NCBI GenBank assembly: GCA_963518785.1
Contig: CAUQKJ010000006.1
Span: 54,410-118,409 of the forward strand
Length of the DNA stretch: 64,000 nucleotides
Direction of reading: 5' to 3'
From: an uncultured Campylobacter sp.
GTDB taxonomy: Bacteria; Campylobacterota; Campylobacteria; Campylobacterales; Campylobacteraceae
Shown here: piece by piece, positions 1 to 42,812 of the stretch
Layout of the letters: each line of letters begins with the position of its first letter
How positions within the stretch are numbered: position 1 is the stretch's first letter
Translations under genes and position numbers: made by a program
Notes under the pieces: generated by a model
Database searches by the model: none
Told to the model about the DNA's origin: nothing
What the model saw: only the letters and a program-made list of their open reading frames with translations

Positions 1-985
1 AGCCAAGCACGAAAAAGGCGCTTTTAGCATCGATCTTATGAAGCTTATAGTAGTCGGTTACGAAAATTTTATCAAAGCCCTTGCCCTTTTGGAAGTAGTA
101 CTTCATCAGGTCTTTTACGCCGTCAAAATACAGGTTCTCGCCGCCCTGAACCTCTATCATCGCCGCCCAGTTAGGGTTTTTGCCTACTAGCATGCCGCAG
201 ACCGGGCATTTAGCGCCTTGCGGCACGACGATCTTTTCAGGCTTTTTCGCTTTTGTATCTTTACCGCTGCTGCCTAAATTTGCCGGCGCATCCCATAGAT
301 ACAGCGCCGCGGCTTGCAGGTGTTTGTCGTACTCAGGCTCCTTGCTCGCGCCTTTCGCGTCGCAAGCATTTTTGAGATGAGCTTTAAGCTCGGAGATGGC
401 TTTGAAGTTTTTCGCTTCGGTTTTAGCGCAGTTTGTCTCATAAAATTCCTTACCGTGCGCGTAAACGCCGCCCTCACGCTTGGCTTTAATCATCTTATTA
501 TCGCCCTCAAAATCCTGCCCCGCAATCTCGTAGGCTTTGGCGAAGCTCACTATCTCGCCGCCGTTTTCGGCTTGAAATTCTTTAGCGTCGGCTTCGGTTG
601 AGAAGGCGTATTTGCTATTGCGGCTCATCGTGCCTTTGACCTTGCTGCCCACGACGTAAAAGGCTTTATTTACGTCGATTAAATTTAGATTTTTCGTATC
701 GACAACCTGCGCATCGCTTGGAATTTTACCGCCCGTAATCTCGTACAAGCAGTGCAGAGAAGCTACTTGCTTGCCGTTTACAACATGGTTGGTTTTATAA
801 AATTTAACCAGGCTCATTCCGCAAACGGCGCAGTATTCTTTACCCTCTCCGCTTCCTACAAGCGTAGCTTTGCTTGGATCCACGCTTTGAAACATAGGCT
901 TTGCCGGCTTATTAGCCCCATCCATGGAGGCGCCGCAAACGAGCGCGACGAGCGCGGCCGAAGCCAAAAACGAACGTAAAATCAT
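1..985 (-). CDS. NosL-family-like secreted or lipoprotein with two tandem CxxCGM modules. Partial: the 3' end runs off the window start.
   Basis: Not in the ORF track because no stop lies in the window. Manual minus-strand translation from ATG at 985 (RBS AAGGAG upstream) is open to base 1. It starts MILRSFLASAALVALVCGAS (signal). It contains YCAVCGMSLV and KCPVCGMLVGKNPNWAAMIEV..LYFDGVKDLMKYY..VTDYY, typical of NosL-type domains. Confidence 0.6.
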   Translation of the reverse strand, partial: MILRSFLASAALVALVCGASMDGANKPAKPMFQSVDPSKATLVGSGEGKEYCAVCGMSLVKFYKTNHVVNGKQVASLHCLYEITGGKIPSDAQVVDTKNLNLIDVNKAFYVVGSKVKGTMSRNSKYAFSTEADAKEFQAENGGEIVSFAKAYEIAGQDFEGDNKMIKAKREGGVYAHGKEFYETNCAKTEAKNFKAISELKAHLKNACDAKGASKEPEYDKHLQAAALYLWDAPANLGSSGKDTKAKKPEKIVVPQGAKCPVCGMLVGKNPNWAAMIEVQGGENLYFDGVKDLMKYYFQKGKGFDKIFVTDYYKLHKIDAKSAFFVLG

Positions 986-1016
986 ACTATCTCCTTAAAA
1001 ATTTGATGTTTTAAAT

Positions 1017-1850
1017 TTACTTACTAATCGAGTTTAAAAATTCCAAATTCTCGCAGCCCATCTTAATGCCGCCGTCGCAGCTTTTTTTGAAAAGCTCTTT
1101 TGCTTTGGCGTTATCGGACTTCACGCCCTTACCTTCGGCATACATTATGGCTAAGTTATTGCAGCCGTCGAAGTGTCCGAGGTTGCACGCCTTTTCATAC
1201 TGCTGCTTTGCCTGCTTATAATCCTGGTCTACTCCTTGCCCGAAAGCGTATAGATAACCTAGATTGTTGCAGCCGATGCCGATGTCGCCGCCGCAAGCTT
1301 TTTCGTAAAAAATTTTAGCCTTTGCGAAGCTTTGCTCCACGCCCTCGCCCTTTAGATACAGATAGCCCAGGTTGTTGCAGCCCATCATATCGCCGTAGGT
1401 GCAGGCCTTCTCATAAAGGCTCGCCGCCTTAGCGACGTCCTTTGCGAGCCCCGCGCCGTTTGCGTATAAAAGTCCGAGCGAGGTGCAGCCTTCATTATCT
1501 TTGCAAGCCTTTTCGTAATAAGCCGCGGCTTTGGTAAAATTTTGATTCGCGCCGTTGCCGCTTTCGTAGATATAGCCTAGATTGTTGCATGCAAGCGCAA
1601 ATTTAGCGCTGCACGCCTTCTCGTAGAGGCTAATCGCTTTTTCGAAATTTTTCTCTACGTTGCCGGTGCCCTCAAAATACAAAACGGCTAGATTATAGCA
1701 GCCCGAAGCTTTATTTTCCAAACCGCACGCTCGCTCGTAAATTTCTGCGAGTTTTTTATGATCGCCGCTTTGCTGTGCCTGAATGCCCTCGCTGATAAAG
1801 CCCGCGTTTGCCGCGGCAGCCAAGGCTAACGCTATTAGAAATTTTTTCAA
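1017..1850 (-). CDS. Secreted Sel1-like repeat protein of the Helicobacter cysteine-rich protein (SLR) type
   Basis: Signal peptide MKKFLIALALAAAANA. About seven repeats of the form AC..(x7)..C(N)NLG.LY..G.GV..(D/N)..KA...YEKAC, each with a paired Cys. Confidence 0.8.
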   Translation of the reverse strand: MKKFLIALALAAAANAGFISEGIQAQQSGDHKKLAEIYERACGLENKASGCYNLAVLYFEGTGNVEKNFEKAISLYEKACSAKFALACNNLGYIYESGNGANQNFTKAAAYYEKACKDNEGCTSLGLLYANGAGLAKDVAKAASLYEKACTYGDMMGCNNLGYLYLKGEGVEQSFAKAKIFYEKACGGDIGIGCNNLGYLYAFGQGVDQDYKQAKQQYEKACNLGHFDGCNNLAIMYAEGKGVKSDNAKAKELFKKSCDGGIKMGCENLEFLNSISK

Positions 1851-1860
1851 ATTTACTCCT

Positions 1861-4551
1861 TTATATCGTTTTTACGTCCCTGCCCCTGAAGGCAAGAGCG
1901 ATTATTAAAAAGACCGCCGCTATTATACAATAAAACGGCGCGGGTATATGCGGTGCGTCTCCCGCGGCGTAAGAGTGCATGCCGGTGAGGTAGAAATTTA
2001 CGCCGAAATAGGTCATTATGATCGAGCTATACGCGAGCGTCGAGCTCACGCAATAAACATAGATCGAGCCGAGCTTCGGGATAAATTTCAGATGCAGCAC
2101 GATCGCATAGACGATGATCGAGACATACGACCAGGTCTCTTTGCTATCCCAGCCCCAGTATCGCCCCCAACTCTCATTCGCCCACACGCCGCCGAAGAAA
2201 TTTCCGAGCGTCAGCATCGAAAGCCCCACGATGAGGCTGATCTCGTTGATCGCCGTTATATATCTGATCTGAGCGTTGAGTCGTTCGCGATTGGCGCTGC
2301 TTTTAAGCACCATCAAAACAAGAGCCAAAAGACCGAGCAGACAGCTAAGCCCTAAAAATCCGTAGCTAGCCGTGATAACCGAGACGTGGATGCTAAGCCA
2401 ATACGATTTTAGCACCGGCACGAGATTGGTAATCTGCGGATTTACGAAGCTCATATGCGCTACTAGCATCACAATACTAGCTAGCAAACAGCTCGCGCTT
2501 AGCGTAAGTAGGGACTTTCTAAAAAATATGATCCCCGCAAGCGCCGCCGACCAGCCGATGTAGATCATCGATTCATAGCTATCGCTCCACGGCGCGTGGC
2601 CCGAGACGTACCAGCGCAACGCAAGCGCAAGGGTATGTGCCGCAAAGCTTGTAGCAAAGGTCGCAAATAAAATTTTTTGCGCGAGCATGAAGCGCTTACC
2701 GCAAAGCGCGCCGAAAAGCGCCAATATTAGAGCTACGCCGCCTAGGATCATATAGCAATAAACGAGCTTTTTGAAAACCGAAGCTTTGTTGTAAAACACC
2801 TCGGCCTTGACGCGACTAACGCTAGGCAAAATTTCCCTCGAGGTGGCTCTTTGGTAGTTTTTCAGCTCTGCAAGTGCTGCATCCGCTTTAGCCCAATCAT
2901 TATCCGAAATTCCGTCTTGCAAGCCGTTTAGATAATCATTTAGCACGCCTTTGATCTGCGGCGCGATCCTATAATCCGCAAAGGCGTCGTTCGGCGAGAG
3001 CCACGCGTTTTGCGGGTCGTTCGGCACGGGGATAAATTTAAAAAACACCCCTCTAAAGGTTAGATACGCGATATTTAGCCGCTCGTCGAATTTAATCAGC
3101 TCGTTATCGAGCACGCCGCGGCGCGAGGCGCTTTTTTCATTCGCCTCGTCCAGGGCGTGGGCGAGCTTGTAGTTGCCGTTTTCATCAAAGACCGAATTAA
3201 AGCTCGCATATCGCTCCTGCGGCGCCAAGCCCAGCATCTTTTTGATCTCGTCGTTTTTGATCTTGATGATCTTTTGATCGCGCCAGAAAGCGGGATTTAG
3301 GCTCATTCCTAGGATCATCTGCTCAGCGCTTAAGCCGTAGAGCGAATCCGTGCCTGAAATTTTATTTACGATCTCGCTTGCTTCGGTGCTAAGCGGCTTG
3401 ATCCTGCCCATGTAATCTTGCACCAAAAGCTCCGCAAACGCGCCGTTTGCATGAACGCGCGAGTTGGCTTTAAGGTTTTGCAGATAGTTTTCATCCGCGG
3501 CGCGAAGCTCAATGCTGAAAAAAAGCGGCGCGATTAGAAGAAGCGCGGCGGGCGCATTATTTTTGATAAATTTAGCTAGCTTTTTAAACCTGCTGCCGGC
3601 GGTAAAAAGATTGCCGATAAATCCGACGCAAAGCAAGAAATAGCCGAAATAAGTGGGGATTTTACCCGGATCGCGATTAAGCTCCAGCACCGTGCCCAGC
3701 TCGTCGGTATCGTAGGAGGATTGAAAGAGCTTAAAGCCGCCAAAGTTTAGCGGGTGGTTCATATAAATTTCATGCTCCCCCACGCTCTTGCCCTCTTTTA
3801 AAATTTCAACGTCACTAGCATAGGATGACGGGCTTTGCGAGCCCGGGTAGCGTTCGAGCTTAAATTTCAAAAGCTTTACCGCAAACGGAAGCTCTATGAG
3901 CTTCGAGCCCCAGCTTAGCATTATCTCCTCGCCGTCAAAATTTAAAATTTTGGGCTCGCCGAGCCAGCCAGCGCCGCCGCGCAGCTGCGCTTCTTGCTCG
4001 CTTCCGCCCTCAAAGCCCGCTTTTACCGCAAGCGTGCCCTGCTCGCCTTTGGGCGCGGGTTTGTAGGAGCTAAATTTGACGGTGAAGCTTTTAGAATTTA
4101 TACTTTGCGTGAAGCTAAAATCGTTATCGCCGATCTGGCTTAAATTTAGCGGATGCTCAAACAGCGCGTCTTGCGTGCGGATTTGCAAGTATGGCTTGAC
4201 GCTTACCATCTCGTTTTCGCTCTCGCCCGCCCTTACGTGCAGCACGCCCTCGGTGCCGAAATAGCGCGTCAGCGCCGCGCCGATAAAGATGACGATAAAT
4301 GCCGCATGAAGCACGAAGGAGCCGAAGCGGCGCCACATTTTGGTTTTAATTATAATGCCGAGCAGGCTCAGCGTCGCAGCACCCATGACGCACTCGTACC
4401 AGCGCGCCTCATAGACTAAAATTTTAGCCGTTTGCGTATCGTAAATGCTCTCTAAAAAGGTTGCGACGCCGGCACCTGCGGCTAGAATAAAAAGGAGGCA
4501 GAGCGCAAACTTGTAAGAGATGAAAAATTTTAATATTTTTAGCGCGCTCAT
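1861..4551 (-). CDS. ccsA1: Fused CcsB-CcsA (CcsBA/ResBC-type) system II cytochrome c synthase. Its location suggests the MccA-dedicated isoenzyme.
   Basis: 896 aa, multi-pass membrane protein with a large periplasmic insert. WWD-type motif WGRYWGWDSKETW and conserved His residues in the C-terminal CcsA part. It lies directly downstream of mccABCD. Confidence 0.8.
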   Translation of the reverse strand: MSALKILKFFISYKFALCLLFILAAGAGVATFLESIYDTQTAKILVYEARWYECVMGAATLSLLGIIIKTKMWRRFGSFVLHAAFIVIFIGAALTRYFGTEGVLHVRAGESENEMVSVKPYLQIRTQDALFEHPLNLSQIGDNDFSFTQSINSKSFTVKFSSYKPAPKGEQGTLAVKAGFEGGSEQEAQLRGGAGWLGEPKILNFDGEEIMLSWGSKLIELPFAVKLLKFKLERYPGSQSPSSYASDVEILKEGKSVGEHEIYMNHPLNFGGFKLFQSSYDTDELGTVLELNRDPGKIPTYFGYFLLCVGFIGNLFTAGSRFKKLAKFIKNNAPAALLLIAPLFFSIELRAADENYLQNLKANSRVHANGAFAELLVQDYMGRIKPLSTEASEIVNKISGTDSLYGLSAEQMILGMSLNPAFWRDQKIIKIKNDEIKKMLGLAPQERYASFNSVFDENGNYKLAHALDEANEKSASRRGVLDNELIKFDERLNIAYLTFRGVFFKFIPVPNDPQNAWLSPNDAFADYRIAPQIKGVLNDYLNGLQDGISDNDWAKADAALAELKNYQRATSREILPSVSRVKAEVFYNKASVFKKLVYCYMILGGVALILALFGALCGKRFMLAQKILFATFATSFAAHTLALALRWYVSGHAPWSDSYESMIYIGWSAALAGIIFFRKSLLTLSASCLLASIVMLVAHMSFVNPQITNLVPVLKSYWLSIHVSVITASYGFLGLSCLLGLLALVLMVLKSSANRERLNAQIRYITAINEISLIVGLSMLTLGNFFGGVWANESWGRYWGWDSKETWSYVSIIVYAIVLHLKFIPKLGSIYVYCVSSTLAYSSIIMTYFGVNFYLTGMHSYAAGDAPHIPAPFYCIIAAVFLIIALAFRGRDVKTI

Positions 4552-4566
4552 TAACCCTCCGCAGTT

Positions 4567-5538
4567 TTACATTATTATATCGTAAGTTTGTCCCGCGTAT
4601 AGTATAAACATTCTAAGAAGTAATACTCCGACCACGCTGGCAAGCGCGCTCGCGTAGAACGCAAACGCAGAGTGAGCGATCTTTTTGCCCAGTGCGAAAT
4701 TTAAAACGAGCGGTACGCAAAAGCCTACGCCCACGACGCCCAGCCAAAACATCTTCGCATAAAATCCCTCGCTAAATGCGACGCTAGCGGCTTTTTGCAC
4801 GTCGCTGCCCGTTATTAGTGAGACGAAAATCATGCCGATTAGTAAAATTTCCATCGCTAAAACCGGCCACTCGACCGCGTGTAAAATTTTAAGATCGCCG
4901 CCGTGCAGCTCAGCTTTAAAGAAAAGCGCGGCTATTAGGCTTGAGCCTGCGATGCCCGCAGATAGGCCCGACGCCACGAAAAGCGCAGGTAAAACGGCTG
5001 TATTAAGGATAGGAAATCTAACCAAAACCGAGATCAAAAAGCCCGTATAGGCGCAGATCGCAACCGCAAAAACAAGCGTAAGCGCAAGAAGCAGCGGGCG
5101 AAGCGCGTTTAAAATTTTCATTACGAGCGTGAAAAGCCCTTTTAAAAAAGTAAGTCTACGCGATAAAAATCCGCCAAGATCAGCTTCAAATGCATAAAGG
5201 CATGCTACGAAGCTAAGCGGGATATAGACGCAAAGCGCCGCCACGCCCACGGACATAACCGAGGTAAAGTTATAATTAATCAAAATTTTCCAAAAAAGTA
5301 GTGGTCGCTCTAAATCGGCTACTAGACAAACCATACCTAGAAGGATAGTGACGAAAGATAGCAGCGACGCAGCCTTAAATAGCGGCGTGCTTTCGGTCTG
5401 CTTTTTATAAAATTTGACGAGGATCGCGACTATTAACGCGCCGCCGCTCATACCCGCTAGCAAAAGATAAACCGCGATCGGCCAGCCCCACTCCACGCCG
5501 TGCGAGAAGGTCGCAGTGAAATTTATAGCTCCGTTCAT
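4567..5538 (-). CDS. mccD: NrfD/PsrC-family integral membrane (quinol-interacting) subunit
   Basis: 323 aa, about 8 predicted TM helices. It is adjacent to and 1 nt from the 4Fe-4S subunit gene, and synteny matches the mcc cluster. Confidence 0.8.
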   Translation of the reverse strand: MNGAINFTATFSHGVEWGWPIAVYLLLAGMSGGALIVAILVKFYKKQTESTPLFKAASLLSFVTILLGMVCLVADLERPLLFWKILINYNFTSVMSVGVAALCVYIPLSFVACLYAFEADLGGFLSRRLTFLKGLFTLVMKILNALRPLLLALTLVFAVAICAYTGFLISVLVRFPILNTAVLPALFVASGLSAGIAGSSLIAALFFKAELHGGDLKILHAVEWPVLAMEILLIGMIFVSLITGSDVQKAASVAFSEGFYAKMFWLGVVGVGFCVPLVLNFALGKKIAHSAFAFYASALASVVGVLLLRMFILYAGQTYDIIM

Positions 5539-5539
5539 G

Positions 5540-6253
5540 TCACACTCCTAGTTTTACCGCAGGAATATAGCGCAGGCTCGGCTTCGTGCCGCACTCAGGA
5601 TGCATGCGCAGGCTATCTTTTACGCGAAGTAGCTTGCTGATGTGCGATTCTTCGTCGTTTAGATCGCCGAATACGATCGCCTCGTATCTGCACGCCTCGA
5701 TGCAGGCGGGCTCGTGGCCGTCTTTTAAATTTGTATCTAAGCAGAAGTTGCAGCTCTCTGCGGCTTTGGTTTCGTGGTTTATGAAGCGCACGTCGTAAGG
5801 ACAGGCGACGATGCAGTATTTACAGGCGATGCAGTCGTCGGTGTTCATCGTAGTGATGCCGGTTTTTTCGTCCTTGTGACAGGCTTTTGTCGGGCAAACT
5901 TTTACGCACGGCGCGTCCTCACACTGCTGACAAGATACTCTGACGTAGCGCTTTTCTTTTAAATTTAGCGGATCGGTTTTATCCTCTATAAAAAGCCTCA
6001 TCTGGCCTTTCGGAACCAAATTTACCTTTTTACAGGCGATCTCGCAGTCGGTGCAGCCCACGCATTTGTTCTGATCAAAGATCATGCCGTAGTGCGGCTT
6101 TTTCGGCTCTTGCTTTTTGACGCTCGCGTTTGCGTCTTGCGCGCTTTTATCCGCGCCGTCGCCGTTTTGCGCAAGTAAATTTGAGGCAATTGCGCCGAGC
6201 CCCAAAGAGCCGAGTGCGGCGGATTTTATAAAATTTCTTCTTTGCTTTTGCAT
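5540..6253 (-). CDS. mccC: Tat-exported ferredoxin-type subunit with four [4Fe-4S] motifs (NrfC/DmsB-like)
   Basis: Twin-arginine signal QRRNFIKSAALGSLG. Cys clusters CVGCTDCEIAC, CQQCEDAPCVKVCP, CIACKYCIVACP and CNFC...CIEAC. Confidence 0.85.
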   Translation of the reverse strand: MQKQRRNFIKSAALGSLGLGAIASNLLAQNGDGADKSAQDANASVKKQEPKKPHYGMIFDQNKCVGCTDCEIACKKVNLVPKGQMRLFIEDKTDPLNLKEKRYVRVSCQQCEDAPCVKVCPTKACHKDEKTGITTMNTDDCIACKYCIVACPYDVRFINHETKAAESCNFCLDTNLKDGHEPACIEACRYEAIVFGDLNDEESHISKLLRVKDSLRMHPECGTKPSLRYIPAVKLGV

Positions 6254-23933: not shown

Positions 23934-23970
23934 TAGCATTATTTTCAGAATTTATTTTAAAGGAGTGAAG

Positions 23971-24732
23971 ATGAGATATGCGCTAGGTGTCGCGCTTGCG
24001 GCATTTATTTTAACAGGATGCGGCGAGGACGAAGTAGAGCTCGTAAAAAACTACACTCTGCCTGATTTCAAGTCTATGAGTATCGGCACGGCGATCGAGG
24101 GCTCGAAAATCTGCAAAAGTGTTACGTGGAGCAAAGAGGAAAACGGCGGATTAAAGACGGTTAAGATGGTCTGCGACGTGGATACGGAGAAAGTGATAGC
24201 AAAGAATGTAGAATCAAAGAAAGAGCTCGACCAAGAGCTGTTGAGCGCTATTTTAGATAGCGCTATGATCTTTTATGGAGGAAAGACTTATGATAAGCAA
24301 GGTCTGCTTAAGATAGCGAATGAGCATTGCAAAATAAACGATGCAAAATTTCAAAAAACGCTCAAGACTAAAGGGAAGATAGATTATAACGATCGACGAA
24401 TGCTAGTTGATTGTGACGATAAATTAATATATGAAATACTAAAGCCCGGCGATTCTAGAATCAACGAAACAAATTGTATGGGTGATATTATGATGCTTTT
24501 GGAAGAAGTGAAAGAAGCTGTTTATTTGTCTCAGCTAACGCCTGAACAAGAAAAAGCTGAGCTAGGAAAAGAGGCAAAGCTATTACCCTCTACGGTTGAG
24601 CTAAATTTTGTGTTAAATGCCAACAAGAGCGTAAGCCTGTCCAATAAATTTAAAATTACTAAAAACGGCAAAGAAGATTCTAATAATAGAATAAGTTCAA
24701 AAGATATTCTTTCGGGCTTCTGCGAAAGATAA
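23971..24732 (+). CDS. Hypothetical lipoprotein
   Basis: Start set at the ATG after AAAGGAG. Lipobox AAFILTGC. Composition is lower in GC than the flanks. Confidence 0.65.
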   Translation: MRYALGVALAAFILTGCGEDEVELVKNYTLPDFKSMSIGTAIEGSKICKSVTWSKEENGGLKTVKMVCDVDTEKVIAKNVESKKELDQELLSAILDSAMIFYGGKTYDKQGLLKIANEHCKINDAKFQKTLKTKGKIDYNDRRMLVDCDDKLIYEILKPGDSRINETNCMGDIMMLLEEVKEAVYLSQLTPEQEKAELGKEAKLLPSTVELNFVLNANKSVSLSNKFKITKNGKEDSNNRISSKDILSGFCER

Positions 24733-26249: not shown

Positions 26250-26352
26250 TTTGATCCATTTTGGATTAAATTTTAAAATTCCGGCGCGCTAAATTTAGAG
26301 CCTAGAGGATAAGATTTAATCTCGTTGCGGTTTGTTAGCAGCAAATCGACGC

Positions 26353-34102: not shown

Positions 34103-35320
34103 TTACTCCCTTGCTAGTCCGTTTTTATTGGATTTATCGCTGATTAGATTGCCCGCTTCGTCGTATTTTTTGGCGCGCACGAGCCTGCCGCGCTCAAACT
34201 CGCCCTCGGCTTCGAGCTTGCCGTCTGCGTAGTAGTGCTTCGCCGTGCCCGTCTCCAGGCCATCCTTGAACGTCACTCTAGCCTTGAGCGCGCCGTTTTC
34301 ATGATATGTTTCATAAAGCCCGTGCTTGCGCCCATCTCTGAACATTACCTTCGCCGCAAGCGCACCGCTTGCGTAGTATTGCTTACTCGTGCCCGTTTGC
34401 CTGCCGCGCTCAAACTCGTATTCGCCCTGTAGCGCGCCGCCCCTGTAGTATTCGCGTACGGCGCCGTCGCGCTCGCCGTCTTTGAAATTTTCGACTACGC
34501 GCGTCTTGCCATCCTCGTAAAATAACTTCCAAACGCCCTGTTTGCGGTCATCCTTGTATGCGCCAGTCTGCTTTAGTGCGCCGCTTTCGTAATACCATTT
34601 TTCCGTGCCTTGGCGCTTGCCCGCTTTGTATGTTCGCACGCCGCGCACTTTGCCACTTTGGTAATAATCCACGTCCTTGCCGTTTCGCAGCCCGCCCTTA
34701 TACGGATGGCGCGCGCTTACTTCGCCGCTTTCGTAGTAGTCGGTGAAAACGCCCTCGCGCCTATCATTTTTATACGTGCCCTGCTGCTTTAGTTTGCCGC
34801 TTCCCTGATAATACAGCTTGTAAAAGCCCTCGCACTTACCGGCTTTGTATTCGCTCTGCGACTTCAGCTCGCCGCTATCTGCGTAATAGCTCTTCGCGAC
34901 GCCGTCGTACAGGCCGTTTTTTAGCGGATATTCGTTTGAGGGCTTATCTCTGCCGTCAAAGTAATCGCGCTCGCGCATTGCAGTGCCGTTCTTTACGTCG
35001 ATCTCTCTGATAAGCGTGGGCGGCAGCGGCTTTGCTCTGGGGTAGACGACGCCCATAAAATTTACGTCGTAGAGATCCTCGGCGCTGTAGTGCAGCACCT
35101 TGAGCGTCCCGCTGTAGGGCTTGTCCGCTACGAAATACAGGCCGTTTTTCAGGACCGGCTCGGGTTGCATTATGATTTTTGGCTCCAGAGCTTGCGCGCC
35201 CAGCGCCAAAAACGGAAGCAGAAGCAGAAGCAGGAACTTTAATGCGCTTGGAAAGCTAAAACTTCGCATTAAATTTAAGCCCAAATTGAGCGAATTTTGC
35301 GCGGCTTTGCGGGTTTTCAT
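34103..35320 (-). CDS. MORN-repeat / YwqK-family repeat protein, secreted
   Basis: About 12 repeats of the form YY.SG.L...G.YK.GK..G....YYE.G. Hydrophobic signal LLLLLLPFLALGAQA. Confidence 0.75.
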   Translation of the reverse strand: MKTRKAAQNSLNLGLNLMRSFSFPSALKFLLLLLLPFLALGAQALEPKIIMQPEPVLKNGLYFVADKPYSGTLKVLHYSAEDLYDVNFMGVVYPRAKPLPPTLIREIDVKNGTAMRERDYFDGRDKPSNEYPLKNGLYDGVAKSYYADSGELKSQSEYKAGKCEGFYKLYYQGSGKLKQQGTYKNDRREGVFTDYYESGEVSARHPYKGGLRNGKDVDYYQSGKVRGVRTYKAGKRQGTEKWYYESGALKQTGAYKDDRKQGVWKLFYEDGKTRVVENFKDGERDGAVREYYRGGALQGEYEFERGRQTGTSKQYYASGALAAKVMFRDGRKHGLYETYHENGALKARVTFKDGLETGTAKHYYADGKLEAEGEFERGRLVRAKKYDEAGNLISDKSNKNGLARE

Positions 35321-35547
35321 ATTTTGCTTCCTTTGGCTCGGTTAAATTTGAAGAATTTTAAAATTTGAAGCTAAATTTTAGATAAATTCACGTAGTAAAA
35401 CGGCGTAGAAAATATGAGTAAAAAATGGTTACCGTATTTATTTTTGACCCATCATACGATAGTTAAATAATAAATTCTCAAGTTGTTTTTTAATATTCTT
35501 TATATATAATATCAATTTAAATTTATGTTTGAATATGGGGTTTGGGT

Positions 35548-37927
35548 ATGAATGTGGATATAAAAGAATTATTAGACTCAAAGCGAGATTTGAGTGAAGA
35601 GGAATTTAATAACAAGCCAGAATTGAAATATCTTGTAGATGGTTGGGGTTTTGAAGCGATAAAAGGTAAAATTTTTATCGCGGATGAGTGGTATATTTTA
35701 AGTCAAGTAGCGTTAGGCTCTCGTCTTGGGGACAGGTATTTACCAGATCCGGAGTATTTTACTATAAATTTTATAAACTATATAAAAAATGCAACAACGA
35801 AAATTTTATTTGATAAGTGTCCCCTCAACTACTCTATAATAGCCGATACATCAATAGAAATCAACACGGATATTATTTTTAATGACTGTATTGAAAATAA
35901 TGATGTAAATATAATTCATGGGTATATATTTAAAAAGGGAATTTATTTGAATAACTCAAATATTAATTTTACTGATTGCACCTTTGAAGATAATTTTAAA
36001 TGTGAAAATGTAAATTTTGATGTTAATTTTTCTCAAAATAGATTTCTTAAAAATTTTGTATTTAGCGCGCTGAAAAGATGCAAGATAAATTTTGAATGTA
36101 CACAGTTCCATTCAAATGCATTTTTTAAAGCAAAACAACAAATAGTGAGTGCAAATTTTTACCAAGCAAAATTTAAGAATACGGTAAGTTTCTCTCCAAT
36201 ACAATTTGGTAACGGTATTGTTGATTTTAGCGAAGCAGAATTTGGCAAAGACGTATCATTCTCTAGATGTAGCTTTAATGGCGAAACCCAATTTAACAGC
36301 ACTATATTTGGCGGTATTACAAAATTTACGAGGGTACAATTTAATAATGTAGTAAATTTAAATAAAGTAGTCTTTAAAGAGGAAACACAATTTTATGGAA
36401 CCAAATTTAATAGAGCAATATTGACAGAAACAAAATTTGAAAACAAAGCCAATTTTACAAATACAGTATTTAGCGAAAAAGCGTATTTTACAGATGCTGT
36501 TTTTATAAAAGAAGTAAAATTTAACAATATACTTTTTAAGAATAATGCATACTTTAAAAATGCCATATTTAAAGATTTTACTGATTTTGGTGAGACAAAT
36601 TTTGAAAAGAATGCTAACTTTTATAACGCGGACTTCAAAAAGCCGGTTAATTTCTCATCAATTATTTTTAACGGCGCTTTAAATTTTGTAAATGCAAAAA
36701 CAGATTTTACATACGAAGAGCTTAAAAAGTTTATCAAGGATAAAAGTGTAAGCAATGAAAGCATTAACAATATAGATAAATGCATAAGCATAACAAATGA
36801 CTTTAGGGACGGTTTTAGACTCATGAAACACACTTTAAACAATAAAGGCAACGCGCTAGACGCAAGCTTGTTTCACCGCTTAGAACTATACTGTAAAGAG
36901 CTGGAACTAGAATTTAGTCTCGAAAATACAAAAACTAAAAAATAGCAAAAATAGCAAAGAAGTAAAATCTACCGATGAAACAAAAGGCGCACCTAAAAAT
37001 AAAAATCTTATTGAGATTTTTTTAGATTTAATAACGTTAAAATTATATAGAAATACTAGCGACCACCATACAAATTTATTTAAGATAATAAACTTTACTA
37101 TTCTAAGTATTGCTGTGTATGGATTGTCTTTTTGGGCTTTAGATGATTTTTTGTTGAAAGTAATGATTGATAGTCCTAAAATATTGATGCTATTGTTACT
37201 GGTTGTTTTTTTAATTGGACTACTAACATGTTTATTGTGTTTTGTTGTGAAGTATAAAATACTGTGGGCGACTGTACCGATAGGAATTTTTACATATATC
37301 ATTTTCATTACACCAGGCTTAGTTAATGCTTTTGATTATTCTATTTATGTTATTATTTTTATACTTTTATATACGACATTATATGCTTTGTCATTTTATT
37401 TGTTTAGATTTAGCTTTGTGCGTTTTATGGCATATTTAATTTTTATGGCTATTTTTTTGGATAAACTTGTATTAATAACGCCGTTTATTGGTATTTTTAC
37501 ATCAGAAAAAATAGCTGAAAGCAAATTTGAAGAATACATAATAAAATACAATAATAATGGCTTGGACGATATGCTTCTGGATGCAAATTTTACCAATATA
37601 AAAGCAGAACATAAGATCAATTTTATAGTTAAAAATAGAAAAATAATTTTAGAAAGATTGGATAATAGTAGAACAAGCACTCCTTTAATTGATTTTGTGA
37701 AAAAATACATAAAATATTCAAAGGAACCCATGGATAATAATGTCAGCTATAAAAATCTAAATGAAACTACTAAAAAATCGTATGAAAAGGCTCTAAATGC
37801 TCTAAAATACGATGAAGCAATGCAATCAATACAAAAAAGTGCAAATTTACTTTATGTTTTTATTATGCTACTCGTCATCTACTCTCTTACAAAAACTGCA
37901 CGTAGAAATTCTGTAGTGCCTAGCTAA
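35548..37927 (+). pseudogene. Pentapeptide-repeat (beta-helix) protein with a C-terminal multi-TM domain, split by a +1 frameshift in a poly-A run. Annotatable as two ORFs, 35542-36945 and 37115-37927.
   Basis: ORF1 carries about 40 pentapeptide-like units (ANFYQAKFKNTVSFSPIQFGNGIVDFSEAEFGKDVSFSRCSFNG...). The ORF2 frame is open from 36911 with no start codon until GTG 37115. That open stretch encodes plausible linker sequence (NSKNSKEVKSTDETKGAPKNKNLIEIFLDLITLKLYRNTSDHH...). Removing one A from A6 (36937-36942) fuses the frames. Confidence 0.6.
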
Positions 37928-38086
37928 AAATTTTATGTAGCTATTAGTGGCAATAAAGCGAACAAGCCTTTTTAAATTTTGTTCGCTTCTTAAATAAATT
38001 TTCACGAAATTTGGCGGCGTCTTTATTTTAGATTTTGCCATTTGCGATAACAGACAGGTAAATTAGCTAAATTTAGATAGATAAAT

Positions 38087-38593
38087 TTAACCGTCTTTTA
38101 GCGCTTCAGCTACGACCGTCCACTCTCTCACGAGCCTTTCAAAGCTAAAATTTGCGTTTGCAGGGCTCGTGGATGGCAGCTTGACGGGTTCTTTGCCGGT
38201 TGCGTTTAAAATTTGAGTTTTTAGGTATTTTTCGCAGATTTCATGCGCCTTACCGCCGTTTGCGAATACCTGCACGATGCGTGCGCCGCTAAAGATCGGT
38301 TCTAAATTTGCAGGCACGACGGCGGTCATTTTGGCGTCGCTCGAGCCCTTTATCTCGCAGCAGATCGCCGCGTCGTAGACGGCGATGCCGCGGGCGAGTA
38401 GGAATTTTATCTTTTCGTCCATGCTTGCAGGCGGCGGCGCGTTTAAAATTCGCGCCAGCACCCGCCAGAAGCGATTTTGCGGATTTGCGTAGTAAAAGCC
38501 AAATTTACGAGAAACGACGGAGGGAAAAGAGCCGAGGATTAAAATTTTAGAATTTTGATCGAAAATCGGCTTAAAAGGGTGAGTTTGGCTCAT
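38087..38593 (-). CDS. DNA-deoxyinosine (hypoxanthine) glycosylase, UDG family 6-like
   Basis: ILILGSFPSVVSRKFGFYYANPQNRFWRVL is the family-6 UDG/HDG N-terminal motif. 168 aa. Confidence 0.75.
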   Translation of the reverse strand: MSQTHPFKPIFDQNSKILILGSFPSVVSRKFGFYYANPQNRFWRVLARILNAPPPASMDEKIKFLLARGIAVYDAAICCEIKGSSDAKMTAVVPANLEPIFSGARIVQVFANGGKAHEICEKYLKTQILNATGKEPVKLPSTSPANANFSFERLVREWTVVAEALKDG

Positions 38594-42255: not shown

Positions 42256-42332
<77 letters not shown>

Positions 42333-42336
42333 TTGT

Positions 42337-42414
42337 GGTGAGTTTAGCTCAGTAGGTTAGAGTATCAGATTGTGGTCCTGAGGGTCGTGGGTTCGATTCC
42401 CACAACTCACCCCA
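42337..42414 (+). tRNA. tRNA-His (anticodon GTG)
   Basis: Extra G-1 pairs with C73. Acceptor GTGAGTT/AACTCAC. Anticodon loop TTGTGGT. TTCGATT T-loop. CCA encoded. Confidence 0.9.
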
Positions 42415-42420
42415 CTTTAT

Positions 42421-42497
42421 GCGCTCGTAGCTCAATTGGATAGAGCAACAGACTTCGGATCTGTAGGTTGAAGGTTCGACTCCTTTCGAGCGTACCA
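42421..42497 (+). tRNA. tRNA-Arg (anticodon TCG)
   Basis: Acceptor GCGCTCG/CGAGCGT. Anticodon stem ACAGA/TCTGT with loop CTTCGGA. CCA encoded. Confidence 0.9.
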
Positions 42498-42512
42498 CTG
42501 ATTCGATAATTT

Positions 42513-42589
42513 GCGCTCATAGCTCAGTAGGATAGAGCAACGGCCTTCTAAGCCGTAGGTCAGAGGTTCGAATCCTCTTGGGCGTACCA
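42513..42589 (+). tRNA. tRNA-Arg (anticodon TCT)
   Basis: Anticodon stem ACGGC/GCCGT with loop CTTCTAA. TTCGAAT T-loop. CCA encoded. Confidence 0.9.
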
Positions 42590-42638
42590 TATTAAGCTCA
42601 TATTAAGAGCTTTTTGGCTAATATGCGCTTTCTTTTTT

Positions 42639-42723
42639 GCGGATGTGGTGAAATTGGCAGACACACCAGACTTAGGATCTGGCGCCTCACGGCATGAAGG
42701 TTCAAGTCCTTTCATCCGCACCA
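42639..42723 (+). tRNA. tRNA-Leu (anticodon TAG)
   Basis: Class II tRNA with a long variable arm. Anticodon stem CCAGA/TCTGG with loop CTTAGGA. CCA encoded. Confidence 0.9.
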
Positions 42724-42737
42724 TCCATTCTACGCGT

Positions 42738-42812
42738 TCCGGATTAGCTCAGCGGTAGAGTAGGCGGCTGTTAACCGCTTGGTCGCTGGTTCGAATCCAG
42801 CATCCGGAGCCA
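42738..42812 (+). tRNA. tRNA-Asn (anticodon GTT)
   Basis: Acceptor TCCGGAT/ATCCGGA. Anticodon loop CTGTTAA. TTCGAAT T-loop. CCA encoded. Confidence 0.9.

Follow-up and report, generated by a model that had tools for sequence, protein, structure and literature searches.

Evidence for a variable-cargo slot between a glycosylase gene and a MORN-repeat gene in oral Campylobacter of the C. concisus/showae group, and the anatomy of a pentapeptide-repeat membrane protein gene found in it

We analysed a DNA stretch of 64,000 nt from an uncultured Campylobacter sp., to which we refer in its full length as the window and on which the coordinates of the locus are given. Between a gene encoding a MORN-repeat protein and a gene encoding a DNA glycosylase it contains an AT-rich islet with a single gene, which encodes a pentapeptide-repeat membrane protein and is split into two pieces by a frameshift. 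The guanine plus cytosine content (GC) in 400-nt segments is 0.54-0.56 at 34.2-35.2 kb, falls to 0.25-0.32 at 35.2-38.0 kb and then rises to 0.48-0.50. The DNA specific to the islet (35389-38065) has a GC of 0.278 compared to 0.479 ± 0.039 for the rest of the window (z = -5.1), the lowest 1-kb block outside the islet in a scan of the window being at 24-25 kb with a GC of 0.387. The bias acts on the nucleotides too, because the GC at third codon positions (GC3) is 0.26 in the islet gene compared to 0.56-0.66 in the genes encoding the MORN-repeat protein, the glycosylase, MoeA and SodB; this rules out that the AT-richness results from an amino acid composition rich in Lys, Asn, Ile and Phe alone. 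These data agree with an earlier reading of the letters by a model (the sequence-only reading), which had noticed the abrupt drop in base composition between the MORN and glycosylase genes, a codon style differing from that of the neighbours and an islet holding one gene only, the latter being confirmed by the list of open reading frames (ORFs) and the frame translations, in which this one gene appears in two pieces. The locus comprises the following features:

34103-35320, minus strand: left flank, gene encoding a MORN_2-repeat protein (PF07661, E = 9e-34; GC3 0.66)
35370-35388, plus strand: left repeat copy, GCTAAATTTTAGATAAATT, in the conserved upstream region of the MORN gene and outside the cassette
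35389-38065, no strand: cargo-specific AT-rich DNA, defined by GC and by a border alignment with eight empty sites that marks the end of homology
35548-36945, plus strand: 5' part of the gene up to a premature TAG (ORF list; PF13576, E = 4e-36; AlphaFold2 (AF2) model)
36937-36942, plus strand: run of six A (A6) with an inactivating 1-bp insertion, the intact alleles having five (A5)
36946-37927, plus strand: 3' part of the gene in the +1 frame (frame translations, hydropathy, conservation, AF2 model and substitutions)
38066-38088, plus strand: right repeat copy, GCTAAATTTAGATAGATAAATTT, with the palindrome CTAAATTTAG inside it; it adjoins the stop codon of the glycosylase gene and moves along with the cassette
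38087-38593, minus strand: right flank, gene encoding a DNA-deoxyinosine (hypoxanthine) glycosylase of the uracil-DNA glycosylase (UDG) superfamily (TIGR04274, E = 3e-32, above cut-off; GC3 0.56)

Within the C. concisus/showae group we compared 80 loci, taken from species-level genomes and anchored on the adjacent glycosylase gene. In 40 of the 80 loci (26 + 14) the glycosylase and MORN genes are directly adjacent, i.e. the slot between them is empty. The empty spacer comprises ~165-175 bp in the clade with the MoeA flank (GC 0.38-0.46) and ~150 bp in the clade with the PFOR flank, and in place of the cargo-specific DNA the empty sites have a GC-normal spacer of ~100 bp. The pentapeptide gene occupies the slot in 16 loci, ten of them with both flanks on the contig and six at contig ends, and 17 loci carry other cargos of five types. 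Five loci have no MORN match and lie mostly on short or truncated contigs, their slot state being not assignable. Wherever both flanks could be located in a related locus, the MORN gene adjoins the slot. The last two of the 80 loci have an expanded GC-normal spacer (263 and 478 bp). These expanded spacers (L049:10507-10771 and L054:10507-10986; L numbers denote related loci) contain repeated CCGCTAAATTTAACG-like motifs and could be remnants of earlier slot events.

Four of the five other cargo types are AT-rich (GC 0.25-0.30). A cargo of 824 bp with a GC of 0.25, present in six genomes, encodes a 213-aa protein (L013:10630-11271), and a cargo of 1.5 kb with a GC of 0.30, also present in six genomes, encodes a 472-aa protein composed of a coiled coil and a transmembrane (TM) part with a weak match to PHROG 30912 (L027:10606-12024). 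The cargo of 2.0 kb (GC 0.25) encodes a TM pair of 168 aa and 312 aa (L079:10765-12124), and the cargo of 2.5 kb (GC 0.28) encodes a PrrC/RloC-like AAA_13 ATPase of 796 aa (L057:3315-5705), which matches the PADLOC family PDC-S06 (E = 3e-222) and, weakly, PrrC. The fifth type, of 1.6 kb and a GC of 0.38, encodes a DUF4198 protein (L078:10860-11612) and has a duplicate of a 3' fragment of the glycosylase gene behind it. Partial second copies of the glycosylase 3' part, comprising residues ~76-168, are found at L078:11733-12011, L076:3430-3708, L071:11838-12098 and L086:2708-2986 and look like the footprint of homology-driven capture. In L086, a DUF4198 cassette and a pentapeptide cassette are stacked in one slot. 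We show that unrelated small cassettes, all but one type being AT-rich, alternate with an empty state at this site, and it is highly probable that the glycosylase/MORN junction is a variable-cargo slot of the oral C. concisus/showae group.

In the window, the gene in this slot is broken. Its 5' ORF starts at 35542 or 35548 and ends with the TAG at 36943-36945, the +1 frame continuing to 37927, and removal of one A from the A6 run yields a protein of 792 aa from the ATG at 35548 (794 aa from 35542). Three metagenome contigs (L001-L003), with 98% identical DNA and the same neighbours, have A5 and an intact gene for 792 aa; they read ACTAAAAATAGC at the position at which the window, L004 and L005 read ACTAAAAAATAGC. 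L004 and L005 derive from independent datasets and are 100% identical to the window over 3.4 kb, including the A6 run. As A6 recurs with 100% identity in two independent datasets, the frameshift is a real lineage-specific mutation. This identity, together with a second alteration of the allele at an invariant position, rules out a sequencing or assembly error as the cause of the frameshift: between the repaired window protein and the intact protein P0001 there are three residue differences, one of which is P640L, and the proline at position 640 is invariant in 49 homologues and replaced by leucine in the window copy. The P640L substitution fits decay following inactivation. The gene is dead in the window lineage, i.e. 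a pseudogene of its family with an A5 to A6 frameshift and a lost invariant P640.

Phase variation was considered as an explanation for the frameshift and rejected, the A5/A6 tract being not hypermutable and other alleles being broken at other sites. Phase-variable tracts are typically poly-G/C homopolymers of at least eight nucleotides with both lengths present within one lineage; here, A6 is fixed in three 100% identical DNA copies and A5 in the 98% identical lineage. Besides the A5 to A6 change of the window lineage, separately broken alleles comprise L031, interrupted without a frameshift and probably by an in-frame stop codon, L067 with a T7 to T6 change and L074 with a frameshift.

The repaired protein consists of a variable head and a conserved membrane module. 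Residues are numbered according to P0001, and the parts, all on the plus strand, are as follows, confidence in the AF2 models being given as predicted local distance difference test (pLDDT):

35548-35799, plus strand: N-terminal alpha/beta cap, aa 1-84 (AF2, mostly pLDDT 76-90 with a dip near residues 62-67)
35800-36702, plus strand: beta-helix, aa ~85-385 (AF2, mostly pLDDT >90; Pentapeptide_3)
aa 386-515, plus strand: helical linker, the beginning of which is still encoded by the 5' piece of the gene (conservation)
37046-37075, plus strand: invariant YRNTSDHHTN motif (conservation)
~37076-37504, plus strand: five-helix TM block, aa ~510-652 (hydropathy scan and second AF2 model)
37505-37828, plus strand: loop domain of ~105 aa, aa 653-760 (second AF2 model)
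37829-37924, plus strand: terminal TM helix and basic tail, aa 761-792, with the stop codon at 37925-37927 (hydropathy and second AF2 model)

The head matches Pentapeptide_3 (PF13576) in seven stretches with 123.3 bits compared to a cut-off of 27 (E = 4e-36). The spacing of Phe residues alternates between five and six residues, resulting in coils of 22 aa, and AF2 predicts short strands in register for residues ~85-385. The full-length AF2 model is good for residues 1-370 only (pLDDT 72-97); for the C-terminal 338 aa, a second model was built from an alignment of greater diversity and has a pLDDT of 72 and a predicted TM-score (pTM) of 0.62. The order of domains proposed in the sequence-only reading, i.e. 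an N-terminal domain, repeats, a linker, TM helices and a terminal helix, is recovered by AF2 and hydropathy, with shifted borders: the N-terminal domain, estimated there at ~190 aa, comprises ~84 aa, because the AF2 beta-helix begins at residue ~85, and the repeat region comprises ~300 aa instead of ~230 aa.

The mean pairwise identity along the protein is 0.42 for the N-terminal cap, 0.47 and 0.62 for the first and the second half of the beta-helix and 0.80 for the linker. It is 0.88 for the helix carrying the YRNTSDHHTN motif, 0.54 for the TM block, 0.69 for the loop domain and 0.86 for the C-terminal TM part. According to sequence prediction, a signal peptide is absent, and there are basic residues ahead of TM1 and behind the last TM helix; for these reasons the first 500 residues are predicted to lie in the cytoplasm. 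The variable head would thus reside in the cytoplasm, and the protein is predicted to be anchored in the inner membrane.

A search with the full-length protein retrieved 205 homologues, some close ones being named 'probable integral membrane protein cj0033' in the JGI source. With the C-terminal 338 aa alone, 103 clusters were found among 1.84 billion representatives, and all ten representatives of these C-terminal matches that were scanned carry the N-terminal Pentapeptide_3 head. The named family members all belong to Campylobacter, i.e. C. concisus, C. jejuni, C. majalis and several unnamed species. Across this wider set, the sequence Y-R-x-x-S-x-H-H-T just before TM1, two prolines after TM5 and the tail S-L-x-K-T-A-R-x-N-S-x-x-P are invariant or nearly so. 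Pfam finds Pentapeptide_3 and nothing else in 47 family members, and NCBIfam has no match for the cassette protein. We show that the cassette encodes a protein of the Campylobacter-restricted Cj0033 family.

Outside the slot, members of this family are found in different genomic contexts. In the C. jejuni locus L092 (4429-9768), a PDC-S26 nuclease gene and a split type IIG restriction-modification (R-M) gene of the cj0031/32 type (E = 0) precede the family gene, the R-M stop and the start of the family gene overlapping. Next come a shorter tandem paralogue of 555 aa, which keeps the linker motifs and the C-terminal tail and is missing the long loop domain, and then homologues of Cj0034c-0039c. 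A locus of this C. jejuni type is also found in C. sp. RM12397, where the R-M gene is intact and a helicase gene lies upstream. In C. blaseri, a Gabija system is encoded directly downstream of the family gene (GajA, E = 4e-235; GajB, E = 3e-194). Defence genes are thus located near homologues in two independent locus types, i.e. in the C. jejuni group and in C. blaseri.

A published comparison describes two C. jejuni strains that diverge after the cj0031 homologue, the phage-sensitive strain having an AAA ATPase and a hypothetical protein and the phage-resistant strain a pentapeptide-repeat protein at this position (PMC8713573); it compares strains, and the effect of the pentapeptide gene itself lies outside its scope. 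Beyond this comparison, the literature on Cj0033 holds only its use as a strain marker in C. jejuni typing assays (PMC7160300) and one row of a microarray dataset, in which its mRNA is 1.5-fold lower under ciprofloxacin (PMC2390758).

Our data point to a tentative model, to which we assign a probability of roughly 40%, according to which the intact gene acts as a single-gene defence or exclusion system against phages or other foreign DNA. The N-terminal cap and the beta-helix would face the cytoplasm, and the helical linker would join them to the five-helix bundle, the loop domain and the terminal TM helix. In such an arrangement, the fast-evolving beta-helix might recognise a component of the invader, and the conserved linker and membrane module might act as effector, for example by membrane permeabilisation in an abortive infection or by blocking entry. 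The sequence-only reading had likened the islet to a defence or exclusion cassette, and this part gains support from PDC-S06 as an alternative cargo of the slot and from the R-M and Gabija neighbours.

Several observations weigh against this model and leave that earlier suggestion circumstantial. The family gene lies between housekeeping genes in C. majalis and in C. sp. VBCF_05, and in C. sp. MIT 12-5580 there are housekeeping genes on the visible side and a contig end on the other, so that three of the six locus types have housekeeping contexts. PDC-S06 is a candidate and not a validated defence system, and PADLOC gives no defence annotation for the other four cargo types. For the cassette protein itself, no family of PADLOC-DB v2.0.0 matches at E <= 1 and PHROGs has no match; INPHARED phages and IMG/VR contain no homologue, and PLSDB plasmids yield generic repeat matches only, from Streptomyces and haloarchaea, and no homologue. 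The sequence profile has no match in the PDB, Qnr and MfpA included, and Foldseek against the PDB with both models and against BFVD with the C-terminal model returned nothing below E = 0.25, the hits being generic solenoids and helical bundles. Since no defence, phage, plasmid or fold search gave a match, the effector idea is read from the architecture alone, and the membrane topology entering it is itself a prediction. The beta-helix is not acidic and has no DNA-mimic signature. Many of the related loci are metagenome-assembled genomes, and some of the disruptions described above could be assembly errors. A high rate of evolution and repeated loss are not specific signals and are also compatible with antigenic or niche-specific membrane proteins.

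A broader version of the defence model, which we regard as possible but less likely than the model itself, would make the whole Cj0033 family a Campylobacter-only and hitherto unnoticed type of single-gene immunity, in which a quickly diversifying beta-helix in the cytoplasm would be the sensor of a phage or plasmid component and the membrane module with YRxxSxHHT, for which no fold is known, would be the effector of abortive infection or exclusion of entry. According to this version, the junction would be an integrase-free, transformation-driven hotspot, and the cargos encoding the 213-aa, the 472-aa and the 168-aa plus 312-aa proteins would be new defence genes.

The explanation that competes best with defence is that of an accessory membrane protein with a role in the envelope, in transport or in host interaction, which would be niche-specific or would have an exposed part under immune or competitive selection, the slot tolerating any acquired gene. 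We consider this possible, though somewhat less likely than defence. It would account for the housekeeping contexts of the three species and for a cassette protein that matches no defence family, and the periplasmic-type DUF4198 cargo in the same slot is unlike a defence gene. A precedent is the cyanobacterial HglK, a TM and pentapeptide-repeat protein with a role in the envelope. However, immune selection on an exposed loop is difficult to reconcile with the variable part being the N-terminal half, for which a cytoplasmic location is predicted in the absence of a signal peptide, and a role outside of defence leaves the defence neighbours in two independent locus types and the one defence-candidate alternative cargo to be explained.

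That the gene is ancestral at the slot, with the empty sites reflecting repeated losses and an AT-richness that is intrinsic and selected, all without transfer, is unlikely. Such an origin would be in line with the use of the same slot in the MoeA-type and the PFOR-type clade, with the conserved 3' end of the cassette and with a GC3 of ~0.26-0.28 in all alleles despite a protein identity of 46-83% among the slot alleles; in C. showae and in a genome labelled C. concisus, for example, the gene has a GC3 of 0.26-0.28 compared to ~0.5-0.63 for the flanks. Yet a gene resident at the slot should tend to approach the GC3 of its host (~0.6), four other unrelated cargo types in the slot are equally low in GC, and the empty sites contain an unrelated GC-normal spacer of 100-170 bp and not the scars of a cassette deletion.

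Moreover, the similarity of the alleles is incongruent with that of their flanks. Compared to the window, the glycosylases are 83-98% and the MoeA proteins 95-99% identical, and PFOR is 96-99% identical to the C. showae copy with one exception of 90%. L047, which has the flank type of the window (MoeA 97%, MORN 91% and glycosylase 90% identical), nevertheless encodes a cassette protein with only 46% identity to that of the window, whereas L080, with the other flank type, encodes one with 74% identity. As allele similarity runs against the flanks, simple vertical descent is unlikely, suggesting that the alleles were exchanged between species or represent old polymorphisms. With half of the loci empty and the gene AT-rich compared to its flanks, the islet is not a feature of all relatives with native composition. 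Taken together, the 40 empty loci, the 16 filled ones, the 17 with unrelated cargos and the incongruence of alleles and flanks support the horizontally exchanged single-gene cassette that the sequence-only reading had proposed.

Still less probable is a Qnr/MfpA/AlbG-like DNA mimic protecting or regulating a DNA enzyme, either a topoisomerase or the type IIG enzyme of C. jejuni. The pentapeptide beta-helix fold would suit this role, as would the start/stop overlap with the type IIG R-M gene in L092, which suggests co-transcription, and the lower Cj0033 mRNA level with ciprofloxacin. The protein is, however, ~4 times as long as Qnr, and its beta-helix is not anionic, with a net charge of +4 in the window protein and a family mean of -2, and is built of 22-aa Pentapeptide_3 coils, not of the classical Pentapeptide family. 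There is no R-M gene beside the family gene in the window and in three other species, and the search of PDB sequences had no match to Qnr or MfpA. A Qnr-like role is unlikely because the protein is membrane-anchored and the helix is not acidic.

The borders of the cassette bear on the way in which it is exchanged. The sequence-only reading had placed the two copies of an imperfect direct repeat correctly at 35370-35388 and 38066-38088, i.e. exactly at the ends of the cargo-specific DNA. Their gapped local alignment has a score of 34, and as this score is reached by ~1% of shuffles and by ~1% of random pairs of islet segments, the excess over chance is modest. That the repeat is a border signature of the cassette, for which it had been taken, is not supported: the left copy precedes the MORN start by ~61 nt in almost every locus of the same clade, including empty ones, and the other cargos have different junctions. 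The right copy is kept in the ten loci with the pentapeptide-repeat protein (PRP) gene in which the borders were read, in some of them with 1-3 substitutions or a 1-nt indel, and the strict motif after the glycosylase stop codon occurs in PRP-bearing loci only, in both clades. The palindrome CTAAATTTAG of 10 nt has four copies in the window compared to 0.19 expected from shuffles, at 26289, 38067, 50486 and 51769; two are intergenic, one is in a signal-peptide coding region and one is at the cassette end. Copies with one extra A/T are present at 35371 and 38940, and the density of the strict motif in related loci is 0.14 per kb.

The junctions are specific for the cargos. The cargos of 824 bp and 1.5 kb replace the 5' end of the MORN gene (first 10-45 codons), and the 2.0-kb cargo alters the last codons of the glycosylase gene. 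In the MoeA-flank clade, these last codons encode ...EALKDG followed by the stop next to pentapeptide cassettes and ...DMLKRAEI followed by the stop at empty sites (window 38087-38110 compared to, e.g., L014:880-913); since they vary with the state of the slot, the right junction of this clade lies inside the coding end of the glycosylase gene. The empty sites of the PFOR-flank clade keep the glycosylase end ...ALKDG followed by the stop. We conclude that the repeat is neither a target-site duplication nor a universal attachment (att) site; a single insertion event may have made use of it as microhomology, or it may be a palindrome with a common regulatory role. A transposon origin with the repeat as target-site duplication was rejected in view of the left copy in empty sites and the differing junctions.

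The least probable explanation is that a mobile element (an insertion sequence, transposon or integrative element) has left the islet as a remnant, with the repeat as target-site duplication or att site: the repeat at both cargo ends with its score at the ~1% level and the four copies of CTAAATTTAG would fit such a remnant, yet integrase and transposase genes are absent from the islet and from the 10 kb on either side of it, the MORN-side copy is also present in empty sites, the junctions of other cargos differ and partly lie inside the MORN or glycosylase coding ends, the strict motif is spread throughout the related loci, and there are no plasmid, phage or viral-contig homologues. The absence of integrase and transposase genes, already stated in the sequence-only reading, is based on the ORF list of the islet and on the Pfam-called genes within ±10 kb on L004, the DNA of which is identical to that of the window over the 3.4 kb across the islet.

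Campylobacter is naturally competent. The lack of a recombinase gene, junctions that differ from cargo to cargo and the duplication of a glycosylase fragment favour a homology-driven exchange after DNA uptake, in which the cassettes would be swapped by homologous recombination in the conserved flanks without a cassette-borne recombinase.

Two putative regulatory elements were found in the cargo-specific DNA:

35444-35471, plus strand: sigma-70-like match TTGACC-16-AATAAT, the best upstream match with 10 of 12 positions, weak evidence
37956-37988, plus strand: putative terminator hairpin, 29 nt past the stop codon, with an 11-bp stem and -14.4 kcal/mol (z = -3.05 compared to shuffles)

Sigma-70-like matches are not enriched over shuffles in the AT-rich DNA of the islet. 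The sequence of the hairpin is kept in other PRP cassettes, and it is the probable common terminator of the convergent cassette and glycosylase genes. A 57-aa ORF on the minus strand (37868-38041), annotated in L001, L004 and L005, overlaps the 3' end of the cassette gene and the hairpin and is probably spurious. Farther from the islet, past the flanking pair, the genes encoding MoeA, a major facilitator superfamily (MFS) transporter and SodB have native composition. Elsewhere in the window, the block with the second-lowest GC (0.387) contains a gene for a predicted lipoprotein of 255 aa with a signal peptide ending in LTGC (23965-24732), which might be another small foreign insert. An ORF-free stretch of lower GC near 42.2-43.1 kb is explained by six clustered tRNA genes (Pro, His, Arg, Arg, Leu, Asn) at 42256-42812; an Rfam scan of 30-45 kb returned this tRNA cluster and nothing else.

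The gene family was already annotated, and variable slots between core genes are a known phenomenon. New are this slot with its set of cargos in oral Campylobacter, the foreign composition persisting across divergent alleles, the membrane module of the family with invariant motifs and without a known fold, and the pseudogene status in this genome. Phage defence in oral and enteric Campylobacter is poorly mapped, few determinants of sensitivity being known beyond R-M, CRISPR and a few predicted systems, and such determinants matter for the phage-based control of C. jejuni. The locus provides a defined, natural and easily cloned candidate for defence and allows isogenic comparisons, since it consists of one gene with natural intact and broken alleles in a slot that has an empty state. 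It also illustrates a way in which small accessory cassettes may be passed between the species of a naturally competent genus at one fixed site without a recombinase gene, and the slot points to four further uncharacterised cargos. Should the defence idea fail, the anomaly in composition is still explained, the pseudogene is shown, and a Campylobacter-only family is defined, the membrane module of which is absent from Pfam and from PDB fold space.

Among known systems, the cassette protein shares with Qnr, MfpA and AlbG the right-handed quadrilateral beta-helix of pentapeptide-type repeats. These proteins are soluble, ~200 aa long and anionic, whereas the cassette protein has ~790 aa and six predicted TM helices, is near neutral and shows the 5+6 spacing.

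Single-protein abortive-infection and exclusion proteins are composed of a sensor domain fused to transmembrane helices. Likewise, the cassette consists of one gene encoding a variable domain, here predicted to be cytoplasmic, and a conserved membrane module, and a patchy distribution and frequent decay are common to both. Different from this class, the cassette protein has no homology to any PADLOC v2 member and its membrane module has no fold match.

Defence hotspots between core genes have been described in Pseudomonas, in E. coli and in P2/P4 elements. The slot resembles them in its variable occupancy between conserved genes, in the alternation of unrelated compact cargos, in a composition foreign to the host and in having at least one cargo that matches a defence-candidate family. 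It differs from them in that it has no integrase, phage or satellite backbone, its cargos are single genes or pairs of 0.8-2.9 kb, a defence annotation is found for one of six cargo types, and exchange appears to proceed via natural transformation and flank homology.

The closest relative is Cj0033 of C. jejuni NCTC 11168, annotated as 'probable integral membrane protein' and 'pentapeptide repeat-containing protein', which belongs to the same family as the window gene. The C. jejuni member P0134 and the window protein share the Pentapeptide_3 head, the linker with YRNTSDHHTN, the TM block and the tail ...SLQKTARKNSIVPS, the C-terminal modules of the C. jejuni member and the window protein being ~29-35% identical. 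C. jejuni is a low-GC species, and in the likewise low-GC C. blaseri the homologue has a GC of 0.23 compared to 0.22-0.27 for its neighbours, whereas the window gene lies ~20 GC points below its host. The sites differ, the gene following the type IIG R-M gene cj0031/32 in C. jejuni and lying between the glycosylase and MORN genes in the window, and in both the gene is accessory, the content of the C. jejuni slot differing between strains as well (PMC8713573).

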